Origin: Erysipelothrix inopinata
GTDB lineage: Bacteria; Bacillota_I; Bacilli_A; Erysipelotrichales; Erysipelotrichaceae
Reading direction: 5' to 3'
Length of the DNA: 32,000 nt
Assembly: GCF_014396165.1 (NCBI RefSeq)
Contig: NZ_CP060715.1
Location: forward strand, 1 to 32,000
In this document: in pieces, positions 9,163 through 16,852 of the stretch
Layout: every line of letters begins with the position of its first letter
Numbering within the stretch: the first letter of the stretch is position 1
Position numbers and translations under genes: made by a program
Notes under the pieces: model-generated
Seen by the model: the letters and a program-made list of their open reading frames with translations, nothing else
Database searches by the model: none
Told to the model about the DNA's origin: nothing

Positions 9163-10233
9163 ATGCGTAAGAATAAAAAGGTTTTATACCCTGTTGTGCT
9201 CGTTCTTCTATTCTTATTACCTTTGAGTGGATGTACTAAAAAAACATTCTCACAAAGTGATGGATTGGATGATAACGGATATTGGAAGAAAGTTACTGCC
9301 ACAGATTATGTTGATGTAGAGCCCTTCAAGAATCTAACGATTCCTTATGAAGTCCATGCTGTATCAGATGAACTCGTTCAACAACAAGTTGAATATGCAT
9401 TCAGTTCCCTTTCATCAAGTGTCAAAGAAGTAACCGATCGTGCTATCGTTGCTGGTGATAAAGTTAATATTGACTTTGTTGGCTCAGTGGATGGCGTTGA
9501 ATTCGAAGGTGGTTCAAGTAAAGGTGCTGTAGTTACAGCGGGAAGTCAAGAATTTATTGATGATTTCTTAACACAAATTATAGGGCACACTCCAGGAGAA
9601 ACAATGGACATTGTTGTTTCATTCCCTGATGAATATCCAAGCAACACAGATCTTCAAGGTAAAGAAGCTCATTTTGAAACTAAATTAAACTTTATAGCGG
9701 AAAATGAAAAAATCGAGGTAACCGATGCATTAATTAGTGAAAAATTTGGATCACTTGGTTGGAATACAAAAGAAGAATTAGAAACAGGAATACGTACTGA
9801 AATTCAAAAAGAAGCTATCGAAAATTATGTAAAAGAAGTTCTAGCAAACTCTGAAGTTAAAAAAGATATTCCTAAATCTGTAGCGAAATATCAAGAAGAG
9901 TCCTTGATCGCAGTATACAGTAACTATGCTAAGAGCTATGAAATGACAACTGAAGAATTCATCAAAGAATATTTACAAGTTGAATCAAGTAAAGAACTGA
10001 TTGAAAAACATGAAGATGATTTAAAGAAAAACTCAATTTATTCTCTTGCTATTCAAGCAGTTGCGGAGGATGCAGGTATTAAAGTAACTGATGAAGAAAT
10101 CGAAACATATCTTGGTGCAGGAACTACTGAGAAGTATCAAGAAGAATACGGAAAGCAATTCTTAAAACGAACAGTCCTAACTCAAAAAGTTGTAGAACAC
10201 ATTGTTGAGAACGCAACTTTAGCTGACGCTTAG
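9163..10233 (+). CDS. Lipoprotein, trigger-factor-like FKBP-type peptidyl-prolyl isomerase/chaperone (extracytoplasmic)
   Basis: Signal peptide plus lipobox (LLPLSG|C at residues 18-24). The next part aligns by eye with the trigger factor PPIase domain (GDKVNIDFVGSVDGVEFEGG...IIGHTPGETMDIVVSFPDEY...LQGKEAHFETKL). The C-terminus is a helical arm-like region. The ribosome-binding N-domain is absent. AGATTAGGTAG RBS region. Confidence 0.8.
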   Translation: MRKNKKVLYPVVLVLLFLLPLSGCTKKTFSQSDGLDDNGYWKKVTATDYVDVEPFKNLTIPYEVHAVSDELVQQQVEYAFSSLSSSVKEVTDRAIVAGDKVNIDFVGSVDGVEFEGGSSKGAVVTAGSQEFIDDFLTQIIGHTPGETMDIVVSFPDEYPSNTDLQGKEAHFETKLNFIAENEKIEVTDALISEKFGSLGWNTKEELETGIRTEIQKEAIENYVKEVLANSEVKKDIPKSVAKYQEESLIAVYSNYAKSYEMTTEEFIKEYLQVESSKELIEKHEDDLKKNSIYSLAIQAVAEDAGIKVTDEEIETYLGAGTTEKYQEEYGKQFLKRTVLTQKVVEHIVENATLADA

Positions 10234-10235
10234 AC

Positions 10236-10284
10236 AAAAAAAACCAAAGCACGGAAGATTAAATTTCCAATGCTTTGGTTTTTA
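10236..10284. terminator. Bidirectional intrinsic terminator between convergent genes
   Basis: Stem AAACCAAAGCA (10241-10251) pairs with TGCTTTGGTTT (10271-10281). An A-run lies upstream and a T-run downstream. It sits between the stop at 10233 (+) and the stop at 10292 (-). Confidence 0.85.
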
Positions 10285-10291
10285 TATGTCA

Positions 10292-11275
10292 TTATTTAAT
10301 TTCGTTTGGACTTTCGTTTGTTTCTACGAATGATTTTAATGAACGTAATGCAACTTCTACCATGTCAGATACTGCTTGATCTGTATAGAATGCAGTATGT
10401 GGTGTTACGATAACATTTTTATGACGTTCAAGGATTGCTAATTGGTGGTTACTGTATGTACGCATACGGTTATCTGTATGAACAATACCAATTTCATTTG
10501 GGAATACATCAAGAGCTGCTGCTCCAATGTGACCTGATTCAATACCTTCAATTAATGCATCTGTGTCAACAAGTTCTGCACGTGCACAGTTTACGATAAC
10601 AACACCTTGTTTTGTTTTCGCAATATTTTCTCTATTAATAATGTGGTGTGTTGAGTCAAGAAGTGGTGCGTGTAATGTAATAACATCTGCTTCTTTTAGA
10701 AGTGTATCGAGATCAACATATTCTAGGATATCTTTAAGTGATTCATTTTCATATAAATCAAATCCGATAATACGTCCACCAAAACCACTCAGGTTACGTG
10801 CAGTATTTGCACCGATACGTCCTGTACCGATAACACCAAATGTTAAGTTGTGCATTTCTTTACCTTGTAATCCTGGTAATGAGTAATCATGTGCTTCAAG
10901 ACGTTTCATCATTGTTTTCATGTTACGAATTGACATAAGAATTAACATAACTGTAAAGTCAGCAACACAACTTGGTGAGTATGTAGCGTTTGAGAAACGT
11001 AATCCGAGTTCCTTAACAGCTTCCATATCAACATTGTTAAATCCTGCACTACGTGAAGCAAGGTATTTAACACCATGTCCTTGTAGTTTTTCAAGAACTG
11101 GACGGCTTGCGTCACAGTTTCCTAAGAATGTTACAGCTTCAAATCCAGCTGCTTCATCAACATTGCTCATTCCTAATTGACCTTGAACAAATGTAATATC
11201 TAATCCTAATAATTCTGAATATTTTTCAAATGCCGCCTTTTCATCGGGACGGACTGCATAAGCGATTAATTTCAT
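10292..11275 (-). CDS. NAD-dependent D-isomer-specific 2-hydroxyacid dehydrogenase (D-lactate / D-2-hydroxyisocaproate dehydrogenase-like)
   Basis: 327 aa with Rossmann motif GVIGTGRIG and catalytic Arg/Glu/His context (NCARAELVD ... TPHTAFYT) typical of the LdhA/HicDH/VanH family. Confidence 0.88.
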   Translation of the reverse strand: MKLIAYAVRPDEKAAFEKYSELLGLDITFVQGQLGMSNVDEAAGFEAVTFLGNCDASRPVLEKLQGHGVKYLASRSAGFNNVDMEAVKELGLRFSNATYSPSCVADFTVMLILMSIRNMKTMMKRLEAHDYSLPGLQGKEMHNLTFGVIGTGRIGANTARNLSGFGGRIIGFDLYENESLKDILEYVDLDTLLKEADVITLHAPLLDSTHHIINRENIAKTKQGVVIVNCARAELVDTDALIEGIESGHIGAAALDVFPNEIGIVHTDNRMRTYSNHQLAILERHKNVIVTPHTAFYTDQAVSDMVEVALRSLKSFVETNESPNEIK

Positions 11276-11286
11276 GTTATTTCCTC

Positions 11287-12315
11287 CTATTTGAAATCGA
11301 TTTTGTAATCTTCAGCAGATACAAGTTTTAATTTATTGTCAAATAAATATGATGACACAAATCCCATAACTACAGGGATGCCTACAAAGACGAGAACTGT
11401 AATCAATAAGTTTCCAGCAGAATAACCTACAATGTTTAAATGATTAATAGGTCCAATAAGACCACTAATACCGAAACCAGCACTTGCAGGTGTACCAACA
11501 ATTGTTAGAATTCCAGCGAATGCACCACATACTGCAGCATTTAAAACGATTGGTAACATCATTTTAGGTTTCTTAATCATGTTTGCCATTTGCATCTTAG
11601 GTGATCCTAAGAAGTGCGCAATACTTGTTCCAACACCATTAACTTTAAATCCAGCAATTGCAAGACCAAATCCAGCAGCACAAATACCTAGGTTTGCAGC
11701 TCCCGAACCAATACCTGCAAGAGAGATAGCCATCGCAACACCCGCTGTAGAAATTGGTGATACAATCATAATTGCGAAAGTAATAGAAATTAAGATTCCA
11801 GCGACAACAGGTGTAAAGCTTGTAAATGCATTAACCATTTGACCAATGAATCCGGTAAATGCTGAAACATAAGGTAACATAATTAAACCAAGTTGGCCAA
11901 CTAAAATAATAACGATAGTTGGTACAAGAAGAATCGTATATGCTTTAAAACGATTCCCAATCATCAACATCACCCAAACAGCAATCGCTGCTGTGATACC
12001 AGCATTAATAACATCACCAATACCCGCAAGTACAAGTGTGCCATCCATAAATTTAATACCACCCGAACCAATTGCAGTTGTAATTGCTAATGTTGCAGAT
12101 TGAATCGGTGTAAGTTTGAATTGCATTGCAATTGTTAGCCCCATAACAACTGCTAATAAGCGTGTTGAGATTGTTGTAAGTTGACTTACAAATTCCCAGT
12201 TTAACGCTTTAGCCAATTCTCCAAGAAGTGCACCAGGTATCAATGCAACAACAATACCAATGCTCATTCCTGTTAAGACTTTATTCGTAAAGTCTTTAAA
12301 TGATAAATCTTTCAT
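11287..12315 (-). CDS. Polytopic membrane protein, PTS EIIC-like orphan permease (paralog of 3052-4101)
   Basis: 342 aa with the same conserved blocks as the 3052-4101 product (roughly half the residues identical by eye). Strong AGGAGGAAAT RBS. Only 11 nt upstream of the 2-hydroxyacid dehydrogenase start. Confidence 0.6.
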   Translation of the reverse strand: MKDLSFKDFTNKVLTGMSIGIVVALIPGALLGELAKALNWEFVSQLTTISTRLLAVVMGLTIAMQFKLTPIQSATLAITTAIGSGGIKFMDGTLVLAGIGDVINAGITAAIAVWVMLMIGNRFKAYTILLVPTIVIILVGQLGLIMLPYVSAFTGFIGQMVNAFTSFTPVVAGILISITFAIMIVSPISTAGVAMAISLAGIGSGAANLGICAAGFGLAIAGFKVNGVGTSIAHFLGSPKMQMANMIKKPKMMLPIVLNAAVCGAFAGILTIVGTPASAGFGISGLIGPINHLNIVGYSAGNLLITVLVFVGIPVVMGFVSSYLFDNKLKLVSAEDYKIDFK

Positions 12316-12349
12316 ATTTCCTCCTAAAGGTCAAAACCCTTACACAACT

Positions 12350-12380
12350 ATGGTAAAGGGTACCCTAAGGGAGTAGGCAA
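12350..12380 (-). promoter_or_regulatory. Candidate MerR-type promoter (19-bp spacer with GC-rich dyads) for the EIIC-like/2-hydroxyacid dehydrogenase pair
   Basis: On the minus strand, TTGCCT (12380-12375), a 19-nt spacer CTCCCTTAGGGTACCCTTT, then TACCAT (12355-12350). The spacer contains dyads CCCTTAGGG and AGGGTACCCT. An alternative reading of the same bases is a weak terminator hairpin CCCTTTAC/GTAAGGG followed by TTTT. Confidence 0.3.
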
Positions 12381-12386
12381 TATTCT

Positions 12387-13205
12387 TTATTCAATTCTTA
12401 TCTGAATTTCTTGGATCATTGTTTCGTCTGATTTTGAAAATGTGTAGTCAACAATGCAAAAATCGCAGATATTTCCAACAGGTTTATACCCATGTTCTGT
12501 ACACCAATCAAGGAGTACTTGATAAGATACTGTGTCGTAATAACCGCCTTTTTTGTACATACAAGCGTACTTTCCTGCAGGTAATGTACATTTTTGTGGT
12601 GCATCCAAATCGGATGACAACATGATAAACGAACCTACTTTCGATAAATAGTTCTCTGAAGAATCTGTGGGTTCCATACAAATTGTGCCATAAGGCATTT
12701 GTGAAAATATGCTCATATCGTTCAAATTACGAAGCATCTTGCGGTATGCTAACATAACTTCAACCACACTATTCTCATTTTCGCACAGTTCATACATTAC
12801 AACACGATCCTCAAAAAACTTGATACTTGGGTGGTTTAAATCCCTTTCATCGATTAAATCAGCCTCTTTATAGAACTTCAACAGGTACTCTAGGTCATGC
12901 TTTTTAGTCATATTTCGAGCTATTTCAACATTAACCTCTGTGAGTTTTTCTTTCAATTTGTCAATTAACGGTTCAAATCGTCGATCACCCAGTAGTTCCT
13001 GAATTTCTGTTAATGAAAATCCGAGATCCTTTAAGTAAATAATCTGCTTTAAATACGGAAATTGCTCTCGTACGTAATAGCGATATCCTGTTTCTTCATC
13101 GATGTGATCTGGCATAAAGAGTCCGATTCTGTCGTAGTATAATAAAGTCTTCTTGCTCAAGTTATGGAGCTTTGCGACCTCATTGATTAAAAAGTTTGTT
13201 TTCAT
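12387..13205 (-). CDS. MerR-family transcriptional regulator with C-terminal GyrI-like effector-binding domain (BmrR-like architecture)
   Basis: N-terminal MerR HTH (FLINEVAKLHNLSKKTLLYYDRIGLFMPDHIDEETGYRYY), a coiled-coil linker, then a GyrI-like C-terminus (LPAGKYACMYKKGGYYDTVSYQVLLDWCTEHGYKPVG ... IQIRIE). I place the start at ATG 13205 (MKTNF) behind an AGGTGAG RBS. The 54-codon upstream extension in the ORF track runs across a terminator and promoter. Confidence 0.88.
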   Translation of the reverse strand: MKTNFLINEVAKLHNLSKKTLLYYDRIGLFMPDHIDEETGYRYYVREQFPYLKQIIYLKDLGFSLTEIQELLGDRRFEPLIDKLKEKLTEVNVEIARNMTKKHDLEYLLKFYKEADLIDERDLNHPSIKFFEDRVVMYELCENENSVVEVMLAYRKMLRNLNDMSIFSQMPYGTICMEPTDSSENYLSKVGSFIMLSSDLDAPQKCTLPAGKYACMYKKGGYYDTVSYQVLLDWCTEHGYKPVGNICDFCIVDYTFSKSDETMIQEIQIRIE

Positions 13206-13275: not shown

Positions 13276-13411
13276 CTTCGATATGTTTTCTTATGTTTGC
13301 GTCTAAAGAGATAACTATCGTAAGCTGACAATGACATTCTAACGCATTGATGCTTCATGACATCCAATATGTCATGAAAGTCATAAATAATGTTATCAAC
13401 GACACAAATTA

Positions 13412-15407: not shown

Positions 15408-15445
15408 AAGCCGCTATACACTTTAATGTATAACGGCTTTTGTTT
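15408..15445. terminator. Bidirectional intrinsic terminator between convergent genes
   Basis: Stem AAGCCGcTATACA (15408-15420) pairs with TGTATAaCGGCTT (15427-15439), followed by TTTTGTTTT on the plus strand. Confidence 0.8.
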
Positions 15446-16809
15446 TATATTACAAGTTTACCTGGATTTAAACGATTCGTAGGATCAAAGCTTGTCTTAA
15501 TGCTTGACATTAAGTCAAGATATACAGGATCCATCATTTTACCAAAATATTTCTTTTTAATTATGCCGATACCGTGCTCAGCAGATGGGAGACCACCTAA
15601 TTCTTGAATCTTATTATAGAGTAGATTAAGAACAGTATCTAAGGTTTCATGCCATTCACTGTCTGATTCGATATCACCACGGAGTACACAAGTGTGTAAG
15701 TTTCCATCCCCAGCATGTCCAAAACTCATAAGTTTTAATCCATACTTAGCTTCTAATTCTTTTGTATATTCATAGATCGTTGCGATATGATGAATTGGTA
15801 CTGTTTCATCCATCGTGACTTGTTCAGTATAATTAACAACTGCCGTCAACAAGGTATCACGCAATTTCCATGCATCTTTTTCAGATTGTCCTTCAAGAAT
15901 AATATAGTCCTCAGCTTCATGCTTGTCGGCTATTTCTTTTAAAACACCTGCACGTTGATCAATAAATGAAGCATCATCGCCATCAAAAGTTGCAAGTAAG
16001 AAGGAATGTCCCTTTTTAGTAGGGAATACCAAACCTGTTTCTTTCTCGCTAAGTTGAATCATGTCACGTTCAAAGAACTCTAGCGCTGTTGGTGCTATTC
16101 CTGAATGAAGAATTGTATTCACACAACGGGTTGCTTCTAACAAGTTATCAAATGCAATAATATATGATTTCTTAACTTTTGGTAAAGGAATAACCTTCAA
16201 TTGAATGAGTGTACTAATTCCTAATGTTCCTTCCGAACCAATGAAGAGATCCTTAATATCATACCCTGAACTTGATTTAACGTTAAGGGTTCCTACCGTC
16301 AATTCACGACCATCTGCAAGTACTAAACGGATCGTTCGAACGTAGTCTCTCGTTACACCATACTTCACTGCACGCATCCCACCAGCATTGGTAGCAACGT
16401 TTCCGCCAATCGTAGAATTCTTTGACCCTGGATCTGGCGGATAGAAAAATCCACGTGACTCAACATACTCTTGAATCTCATGCAATTGAACACCAGGTTC
16501 AACCGTTAGAGTCATTGTATTTAAATCCAAATCAATAATTTTATTCATTTTTGATAAATCTATAATAAGTTCATTTTCAAGCGGTGCGGTAGCTCCTGAG
16601 AGACCGGTGCCTGCTCCCCTTGCAATAATCTTTAAATCTTTTTCATTGGCATATTTAACTAAAGCCACGACTTCTTCATGTGTTAAGGGTAATGCTACAG
16701 CATGAACACTTTTTGCTTGCCCAACATATTCATCAAAAAGATAGTCTTGTCCAACTTCATCCCCAATAAATAAGCGAGATGAATCTTTAATGATTTCTAC
16801 TAATTCCAT
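15445..16809 (-). CDS. FAD-linked oxidase, GlcD / D-lactate (D-2-hydroxyacid) dehydrogenase family
   Basis: PCMH-type FAD-binding domain (ARGAGTGLSGA) and the C-terminal FAD-oxidase_C signature (HAGDGNLH ... SAEHGIG). I place the start at ATG 16809 (MELVEII) because a GGAGGT RBS lies inside the first four codons of the ORF-track start. Confidence 0.88.
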   Translation of the reverse strand: MELVEIIKDSSRLFIGDEVGQDYLFDEYVGQAKSVHAVALPLTHEEVVALVKYANEKDLKIIARGAGTGLSGATAPLENELIIDLSKMNKIIDLDLNTMTLTVEPGVQLHEIQEYVESRGFFYPPDPGSKNSTIGGNVATNAGGMRAVKYGVTRDYVRTIRLVLADGRELTVGTLNVKSSSGYDIKDLFIGSEGTLGISTLIQLKVIPLPKVKKSYIIAFDNLLEATRCVNTILHSGIAPTALEFFERDMIQLSEKETGLVFPTKKGHSFLLATFDGDDASFIDQRAGVLKEIADKHEAEDYIILEGQSEKDAWKLRDTLLTAVVNYTEQVTMDETVPIHHIATIYEYTKELEAKYGLKLMSFGHAGDGNLHTCVLRGDIESDSEWHETLDTVLNLLYNKIQELGGLPSAEHGIGIIKKKYFGKMMDPVYLDLMSSIKTSFDPTNRLNPGKLVI

Positions 16810-16852
16810 ATTTACCTCCATACGGTAATTATAGTTGAAAGGGCTTTACGTT

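Follow-up and report, generated by a model that had tools for sequence, protein, structure and literature searches.

Gene content and boundaries of the unit

The genome of Erysipelothrix inopinata analysed here is assembled as one 2.2-Mb contig (NZ_CP060715.1; completeness 94.6%), and its first 32 kb (positions 1 to 32,000) are referred to as the window. On the minus strand of the window lie three genes that encode a BmrR-type regulator, a permease of the Pfam family PF13303 and an NAD-dependent D-2-hydroxyacid dehydrogenase. The permease and the dehydrogenase belong together in several lineages, the gap behind the regulator gene carries a predicted MerR-type promoter with its operator, and we tentatively read the whole as an inducible system for bulky 2-oxo acids. 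The features are the following (AF2, AlphaFold2; D-LDH, D-lactate dehydrogenase; HicDH, 2-hydroxyisocaproate dehydrogenase; ORF, open reading frame).

13205-12387, minus strand: BmrR-type regulator, 272 aa (Pfam, phmmer, AF2 model)
12315-11287, minus strand: clade-A permease of PF13303 (PTS_EIIC_2, PfoR-type), 342 aa (Pfam, tree, AF2 model)
11275-10292, minus strand: NAD-dependent D-2-hydroxyacid dehydrogenase of the D-LDH/HicDH/HGDH branch, 327 aa (profiles, phmmer, residue alignment)
12350..12380, minus strand: predicted MerR-type promoter and operator (layout shared by 13/14 regulator-linked gaps)
13251-13224, minus strand: putative sigma-70-type promoter of the regulator gene, TTGCCT-16-TATAAT (consensus match alone, 10/12 positions)
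13274-13258, minus strand: intrinsic terminator of an upstream ORF resembling the tail of NrdD (6-pair stem with 4 G-C pairs, then a T-run)
10239-10283, both strands: bidirectional intrinsic terminator, common to the module and a convergent lipoprotein gene that ends at 10233 (folding)
4101-3052, minus strand: paralogous clade-A permease, given as context only, between the E3 and ptb genes of the 2-oxoacid dehydrogenase-ptb-buk operon

A preliminary description of this stretch had already claimed three co-directional genes at these positions, closed by a strong bidirectional terminator, and both claims hold. The gaps measure 71 nt between regulator and permease and 11 nt between permease and dehydrogenase, and the stop codon of the permease gene is overlapped by the Shine-Dalgarno sequence of the dehydrogenase gene. 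For the terminator at 10239-10283 the folding energy is -21.2 kcal/mol (minus strand) or -19.7 kcal/mol (plus strand), with z about -6, and none of 200 shuffles folded as well. At the other end, the terminator at 13274-13258 would insulate the module from upstream transcription, and together with the promoter at 13251-13224 it points to a separate transcription start for the regulator gene. The ORF list also offers a TTG start for the regulator at 13367, which adds about 50 codons and would place both the regulator's promoter and the terminator before it inside the coding frame. Since 263-275 aa is the length of most regulator homologues, the ATG at 13205 is favoured and the TTG start is probably an over-extension; one public cluster representative, P0005, has the same kind of extension and 323 aa. 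The flanks of the unit vary between species, and the GlcD-like oxidase at 15445-16821 stands outside the conserved unit.

Conservation of the unit and the neighbourhood of the permease

Eight other Erysipelothrix genomes have the regulator, permease and dehydrogenase genes in this order. Outside the genus, the triple was found in C. botulinum (L116/L117), T. perfilievii (L118), C. tetani (L122) and a 3.4-Mb JGI metagenome contig (L128), with permeases from 59% (C. botulinum) to 67% (C. tetani) identical to the window copy. The joint conservation that had been suggested as a check on the module is thus seen in the genus and across phyla. Moreover, a variant without the permease exists at L119:1420-3889, where the regulator, the same operator-bearing promoter and an orthologous dehydrogenase (59% identical) are followed by a gene of the DJ-1/PfpI family; this arrangement speaks for a link between regulator and dehydrogenase. 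When seven non-genus contexts were chosen by the permease alone, the dehydrogenase was directly downstream in six, and the regulators comprised MerR proteins in two contexts and a PAS_6/HTH_22 protein in Sphaerochaeta, with none visible elsewhere. The conserved core is the permease plus the dehydrogenase. The BmrR-type regulator, together with its operator, is not a defining part of it but an addition that recurs in four orders (Erysipelotrichales, Clostridiales, Spirochaetales-like lineages and one unplaced contig).

The window permease matches PF13303 with 324.8 bits and is 51% identical to the copy at 4101-3052. Two copies of an orphan permease had been reported from the window; these are indeed paralogues, but the genome holds four PF13303 genes in all. 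Three of the four have a 2-Hacid_dh gene behind them, either overlapping or at most 35 nt away; it is another paralogue each time, 30-34% identical to the window dehydrogenase. The remaining gene lies between E3 and ptb in the bkd-ptb-buk operon.

Two of these loci lie outside the window. The copy at 847314-848332 is split into a 303-aa ORF lacking the first ~30 profile positions and a short upstream frame that contains them, as either a frameshift or an assembly error would produce; its partner dehydrogenase (846283-847278) is intact and is followed by a 136-aa ORF, MarR-like by eye, and a 328-aa ORF. At 1161518-1164572, the permease gene and its partner, another 2-Hacid_dh paralogue, overlap by 17 nt; a divergent 254-aa regulator, IclR-like by eye, lies beside them, and a second genome (G011) has the same arrangement. 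A different regulator for each paralogous pair suggests different inducers or substrates.

We further examined the neighbours of the family in a phylum sample of 399 genomes, 117 of which contain PF13303, and took 80 loci; PF13303 was also found in Clostridia, Bacillales and Spirochaetes. A quick IQ-TREE run on 95 PF13303 proteins separated two clades, A (33 proteins) and B (62 proteins), with an SH-aLRT support of 99. Of the 33 clade-A genes, 30 adjoin a 2-oxo-acid enzyme (18 2-Hacid_dh, 5 PanE/ApbA and 7 within bkd-ptb-buk operons), and none of the 62 clade-B genes has such a neighbour. A keto-acid neighbourhood common to the whole family was considered and rejected, as none of the distant members checked (22-32% identical) has one, so the association is specific to clade A. 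Within this clade the dehydrogenase gene stands either upstream or downstream of the permease gene, which indicates that the adjacency is kept despite rearrangements.

The PanE/ApbA reductases have a fold unrelated to that of 2-Hacid_dh, and a 2-oxo acid is the sole metabolite common to these two unrelated reductases and the oxidative decarboxylase complex. We propose from these neighbourhoods that the permease is a candidate carrier of 2-oxo/2-hydroxy monocarboxylates. The idea of a 2-oxo/2-hydroxy-acid permease was part of the preliminary description, and it is strengthened by the occurrence of 2-Hacid_dh, PanE/ApbA and bkd genes all beside one clade.

Clade-B genes (22-32% identical) keep other company. 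A NiaR-type repressor (HTH_11 + 3H) lies upstream on the same strand in L036, L062, L090 and L112 and on the opposite strand beside the permease gene in L031 and L054, and nicotinate phosphoribosyltransferase (NAPRTase) is encoded downstream in L064, L073 and L089. These neighbours suggest that clade B carries niacin or a related small aromatic carboxylate.

The Pfam name of the family points to another possibility, namely a genuine sugar-specific enzyme IIC (EIIC) of the phosphotransferase system (PTS) with distant EIIA and EIIB partners, next to which the dehydrogenase would be incidental. Judged by its AF2 model, with a predicted local distance difference test score (pLDDT) of 85, the permease has an EIIC-type fold. 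The nearest solved folds in Foldseek are glucose-superfamily EIICs (E. coli and V. cholerae PtsG, B. cereus MalT, ChbC), with probability 1.0 and template modelling (TM) scores of 0.44-0.61, the best matches lying at 0.46-0.61, and PTS components do occur elsewhere in the genome, for example an ORF at 843311 that bears an EIIB motif. However, the window permease is only 11-17% identical to those proteins and has 342 aa against their 380-470 aa, it has neither a fused nor an adjacent EIIB/EIIA, and its neighbours are keto-acid enzymes and not sugar genes. No match to the canonical PTS_EIIC model was obtained at E <= 0.001, and no EIIA/EIIB partners or sugar-catabolic genes were found in the window around the permease or in the 11 Pfam-annotated contexts. 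Since the adjacency with the dehydrogenase is also clade-wide and extends over several phyla, we find a sugar EIIC hardly credible.

Public names of close homologues are of a different kind, "putative membrane protein, putative toxin regulator" (P0185, 61% identical) and "regulator" (P0123, 67%), and "PTS sugar transporter IIC" is also used in the family; these names derive from the sugar PTS and from C. perfringens pfoR. Going by record names, we take C. perfringens PfoR (COG3641) to be a member of PF13303. According to PMC4448169, which cites Awad and Rood 2002, the expression of perfringolysin O has been shown not to be under the control of pfoR. Unlike what the PfoR label implies, the window member stands in a metabolic and not a regulatory context. 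In the literature searched, nothing relevant was found on the function of PF13303, on PTS_EIIC_2 or on a role as keto-acid transporter.

The BmrR-type regulator and its predicted operator

The regulator had been described as a MerR helix-turn-helix (HTH) joined to a GyrI-like domain, and the profiles and the structural model agree with this. The N-terminus matches MerR_1 (PF13411, 54.2 bits with a cut-off of 21.6) and PF00376 (40.1 bits), that is, a MerR winged HTH is present. The C-terminal half matches the GyrI-like family PF06445 weakly, at 21.4 bits (E 3.4e-4) and below the cut-off of 26; homologues with 35-45% identity do carry PF06445. The AF2 model, built on 33 homologues (pLDDT 92), contains helices 7-13 and 18-26, a wing strand at 42-45 and a continuous coiled-coil helix of the dimerisation type at 77-116. 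Its C-domain matches SbmC/GyrI 1jyh, the BmrR C-domain 1bow, EcmrR-C 6wl5 and CTR107, all with probability 1.0.

Bacillus subtilis BmrR (1exi, 3q1m, 3iao) is the nearest by structure, with the same three-part architecture, full-length TM scores of 0.77-0.79 for the model and a full-length phmmer alignment to 1exi at E 3e-14. "BmrR-type" is correct as a statement on modelled architecture (MerR HTH, coiled coil, GyrI-like domain). The regulator is not a BmrR orthologue, because the identity is only ~22%; moreover, it lies upstream of and co-directional with its target, and the cargo is a carrier plus an oxidoreductase and not a multidrug pump. In the HMMER alignment, whose accuracy is low around Asp248, this residue is opposite the buried Glu253 of BmrR and Met is opposite Tyr268. 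Asp253 of the regulator is nearly invariant among homologues. The top full-length match in NCBIfam is the choline-utilization activator NF053782 (residues 2-270 against model positions 4-274, E 1.3e-18), a precedent for a metabolic operon under the MerR/GyrI architecture. The score of 67.5 bits is far under the cut-off of 450 bits, so the window regulator is not a member of NF053782, and the target genes are unrelated.

The preliminary description had suggested the gap between regulator and permease as the DNA on which to test binding of the regulator. The 71-nt gap contains the hexamers TTGCCT and TACCAT 19 bp apart, with CCCTTAGGG centred on position 8 of this spacer, and the motif ends 34 nt before the permease start codon. 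The dyad reads CCCT-T-AGGG with the core CCTWAGG; in the target promoter of BmrR the spacer likewise measures 19 bp and the dyad is C-rich, of the CCC..TAGG type. We scanned 14 gaps downstream of orthologous regulators for the layout TT-N4 / N4-CCTWAGG-N8 (19 bp) / TA-N3-T, allowing one core mismatch; the gaps come from nine Erysipelothrix loci, C. botulinum, Thiospirochaeta perfilievii, C. tetani and two metagenome contigs (three phyla). The layout is present in 13 of the 14, the exception being C. tetani with two mismatches, and in none of the four gaps preceding permease-dehydrogenase pairs without the regulator; the shuffled-gap background is 14 in 28,000. Among the nine Erysipelothrix loci, whose regulators are 52-96% identical, the hexamers vary and the 19-bp spacing and the core remain constant in register. 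Non-genus regulators with the layout downstream are 43-46% identical where identity was measured. Because the layout stays in register wherever the regulator is present and is not found in the controls, there is strong comparative evidence for the predicted action of the regulator, by the MerR mechanism, on this promoter with its over-long spacer.

A hairpin in the same gap was considered as a terminator or attenuator and rejected, since 40 of 200 shuffles folded equally well (z -0.87) and the terminator scan found none there. A strict promoter-plus-operator search of the 2.2-Mb genome returned one occurrence, this site, and no further regulon members; the uniqueness of the strict pattern is uninformative, as about one chance match is expected under a mononucleotide model.

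In addition, the gap beside a regulator homologue of Halalkalibacterium halodurans (L120:4001-5504) reads TTGACT, a 19-bp spacer with a CTCC..GGAG dyad near the bmr operator type, and TTTTAT. This locus looks like a sister regulon with export cargo.

Predicted dehydrogenase specificity and the proposed flow of 2-oxo acids

The dehydrogenase matches 2-Hacid_dh_C (PF02826, 168 bits) and 2-Hacid_dh (PF00389, 74 bits), and its catalytic Arg232, Glu261 and His293 align with the triad Arg235/Glu264/His296 and are kept in all orthologues. In the pocket, Leu51 occupies position 52 of the L. pentosus enzyme and Phe296 position 299; in the printed alignments Leu51 is opposite Phe51 of E. coli LdhA and Arg52 of HGDH. 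Leu at position 52, within the motif (F/I/V)-L-G-(N/H)-C-D, is shared by all regulator-linked orthologues, those of clostridia and spirochaetes among them, in place of the aromatic residue (Tyr/Phe) of pyruvate-specific D-LDHs. Tyr52 and Phe299 of D-LDH shut out bulky side chains (PMC4070498; see also PMC4230899). With the exchange Y52L, activity rose 16- to 1476-fold when C4-C6 or aromatic 2-oxo acids were the substrates, kcat/Km for phenylpyruvate went from 1.0e3 to 7.5e6 M-1 s-1, and the L. pentosus D-LDH became a D-HicDH (PMC4070498). From the Leu at this position we predict a broad HicDH-like 2-oxo-acid reductase, to which pyruvate may be open too. By its pocket residue the enzyme is thus predicted not to be a plain fermentative D-LDH, which had been named as an outcome that would undo the earlier proposal.

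L. casei D-HicDH (1dxy) and the Y52L variants of D-LDH share with the window enzyme the family, the catalytic Arg/Glu/His and the Leu for Tyr52. Unlike 1dxy (phmmer E 2.8e-56), the window enzyme is nearer Gram-negative LdhA-type D-LDHs and HGDH (E ~1e-65) and keeps Phe at 299, and it can be called HicDH-like by sequence alone.

These affinities would also accord with a plain D-lactate system, made up of a D-LDH and a lactate/pyruvate carrier. D-LDHs (4cuj, 5z1z, 1j49) are among the best PDB sequence matches, public records label the orthologues "lactate dehydrogenase", and a Leu52 enzyme retains activity on pyruvate (PMC4070498). However, the orthogroup conserves Leu and not Tyr/Phe at position 52, and the permease clade is also paired with PanE-type branched-chain keto-acid reductases and with bkd genes. 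The genome, moreover, has two genes of the L-LDH family, available for ordinary lactate fermentation, and five full-length 2-Hacid_dh genes, i.e. the window enzyme and four paralogues. A plain D-lactate system is accordingly a very unlikely explanation to us.

Three narrower assignments were also rejected. VanH was dismissed since the best NCBIfam match, NF000492, reaches 294.7 bits, far short of its cut-off (540), and no van genes are nearby. HGDH (1xdw) was dismissed since Leu51 replaces Arg52; Martins et al. 2005 reportedly assigned Arg52 of HGDH, with other basic residues, to the distal carboxylate. The idea that the clostridial dehydrogenase is FldH, the phenyllactate dehydrogenase of C. 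sporogenes, was dropped, the records being from C. botulinum and labelled lactate dehydrogenase only; judging by the accession numbers, we take these to be Group II (non-proteolytic) strains.

Starting from the observed gene order, conservation, promoter layout, protein folds and pocket residue, we infer that the regulator binds its site, and we infer what the substrates are, which way they flow and what kind of inducer acts, as follows. The permease and dehydrogenase genes would form an operon under a MerR-type promoter, with the activator encoded directly upstream and expressed from an ordinary promoter of its own. A dimer of the activator would sit on the CCTWAGG dyad within the 19-bp spacer; a small, probably hydrophobic effector would bind the GyrI-like domain, and the over-long spacer would then be untwisted so that RNA polymerase can start, as in the BmrR/MerR mechanism. 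The permease, with its EIIC-type fold and no PTS partners, would carry 2-oxo/2-hydroxy monocarboxylic acids, and the broad HicDH-like, NADH-dependent dehydrogenase would yield D-2-hydroxy acids. External branched-chain or aromatic 2-oxo acids would thus be imported and reduced, the reduction would regenerate NAD+ and form a redox sink, and the hydroxy acid would leave the cell, possibly through the same carrier in an oxo/hydroxy exchange. In short, we read the unit as an inducible permease-dehydrogenase operon under a BmrR-like activator, with a PTS-independent carrier and an NADH-dependent reductase for bulky 2-oxo acids, and we hold this reading at somewhat less than even confidence.

NAD-linked enzymes of this dehydrogenase family favour reduction. 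The 94.6%-complete single-contig genome gave no match to PF01063, the family of IlvE-type aminotransferases, although the bkd-ptb-buk operon is present, which fits a reliance on imported keto acids. Uptake followed by reduction is favoured on these two grounds, and also because PanE partners are reductases and external keto acids serve as sinks: branched-chain keto acids from outside are an ATP source and a redox sink in enterococci and lactococci, as noted in PMC9241929 on the authority of Ward 2000. The PanE-type enzymes are described in PMC4353338, citing Chambellon 2009 and Wada 2008, as D-2-hydroxyacid dehydrogenases of L. lactis and E. faecalis. These enzymes and the E. faecalis operon ptb-buk-bkdDABC represent the same enzyme types that lie beside clade-A permeases; unlike the window unit, a dedicated carrier or MerR-type control was not found described for them in the literature searched.

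Several observations weigh against uptake and reduction of keto acids under this regulator. Many non-genus permease-dehydrogenase pairs have no BmrR-type regulator, and the sampled genomes are related, so that the adjacency counts overstate independence. Class I/II aminotransferases could make 2-oxo acids internally, which weakens the argument for import, and the pocket of the Y52L type keeps good pyruvate activity (PMC4070498, Table 1). The regulator raises a further difficulty. GyrI-like pockets prefer hydrophobic or aromatic ligands, and Asp248/Asp253 would go better with an effector that is cationic or bears an amine than with the anion of a keto acid. The H. halodurans homologue, 38% identical, lies upstream of a gene for a LysE-family exporter, which means that the regulator subfamily is not bound to keto acids. 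The Asp opposite Glu253 and this LysE-linked homologue together call for caution over an anionic keto acid as effector.

This Asp and the LysE-linked homologue would suit an overflow or detoxification valve, in which the dehydrogenase reduces 2-oxo acids that the cell makes from amino acids, the 2-hydroxy acid goes out through the permease and the regulator senses excess amino acid or a toxic aromatic. MerR/GyrI regulators are classical activators of genes for export or detoxification, BmrR is structurally the nearest, and the L119 variant joins regulator and dehydrogenase to a DJ-1/PfpI gene without any permease. However, the paralogue embedded in the bkd operon and the missing IlvE-type transaminase point to an imported 2-oxo acid, and export alone leaves the pairing of the carrier clade with an oxidative complex unexplained. 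We consider such a valve unlikely.

A catabolic route, one of the two options of the preliminary description, would run the other way: D-2-hydroxy acids would be imported, oxidised to 2-oxo acids and fed to the 2-oxoacid dehydrogenase-ptb-buk pathway for ATP. The paralogous permease within the bkd-ptb-buk operon of the same window would agree with this, as would the position of the two permease groups as sisters in the tree. From general biochemistry, however, NAD-linked oxidation of 2-hydroxy acids is thermodynamically uphill, and organisms that use lactate normally do so with flavin- or Etf-linked enzymes. The unit also occurs in genomes or contexts without nearby bkd genes, and the PanE-type partners of clade-A permeases are known as reductases (PMC4353338). 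The chance of a catabolic role is in our estimate small.

Uptake and reduction can also be put in a broader form, which we regard as doubtful: clade-A PF13303 proteins may be PTS-free exchangers of 2-oxo/2-hydroxy acids that, together with a reductase, open external electron sinks, the regulator sensing the 2-oxo acid or its side chain and the whole moving as a cassette.

All parts of the unit come from known families. The function of PF13303, its clade-wide pairing with reductases and the combination with a BmrR-type activator and operator were not found described in the literature searched. Hydroxyisocaproate, phenyllactate and indolelactate derive from branched-chain and aromatic keto acids, which are also substrates of bkd-ptb-buk, and to our knowledge the uptake of these keto acids by Gram-positive fermenters is poorly known. 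The widespread orphan family PF13303/COG3641 gains a testable hypothesis, a 2-oxo/2-hydroxy acid carrier with its partner enzyme, a predicted regulator and an operator. In addition, the BmrR-type design would extend from drug efflux to a small metabolic operon, and the operator with its 19-bp spacer, conserved across phyla, could serve as a sensor. If the proposed reading is true, annotations in hundreds of genomes would need correction. If the exchangers exist as well, host- or community-derived branched-chain and aromatic 2-oxo acids would be external electron sinks for fermenters, and the unit would amount to a horizontally mobile, self-contained cassette, "keto-acid respiration-like" and equipped with an operator of its own.

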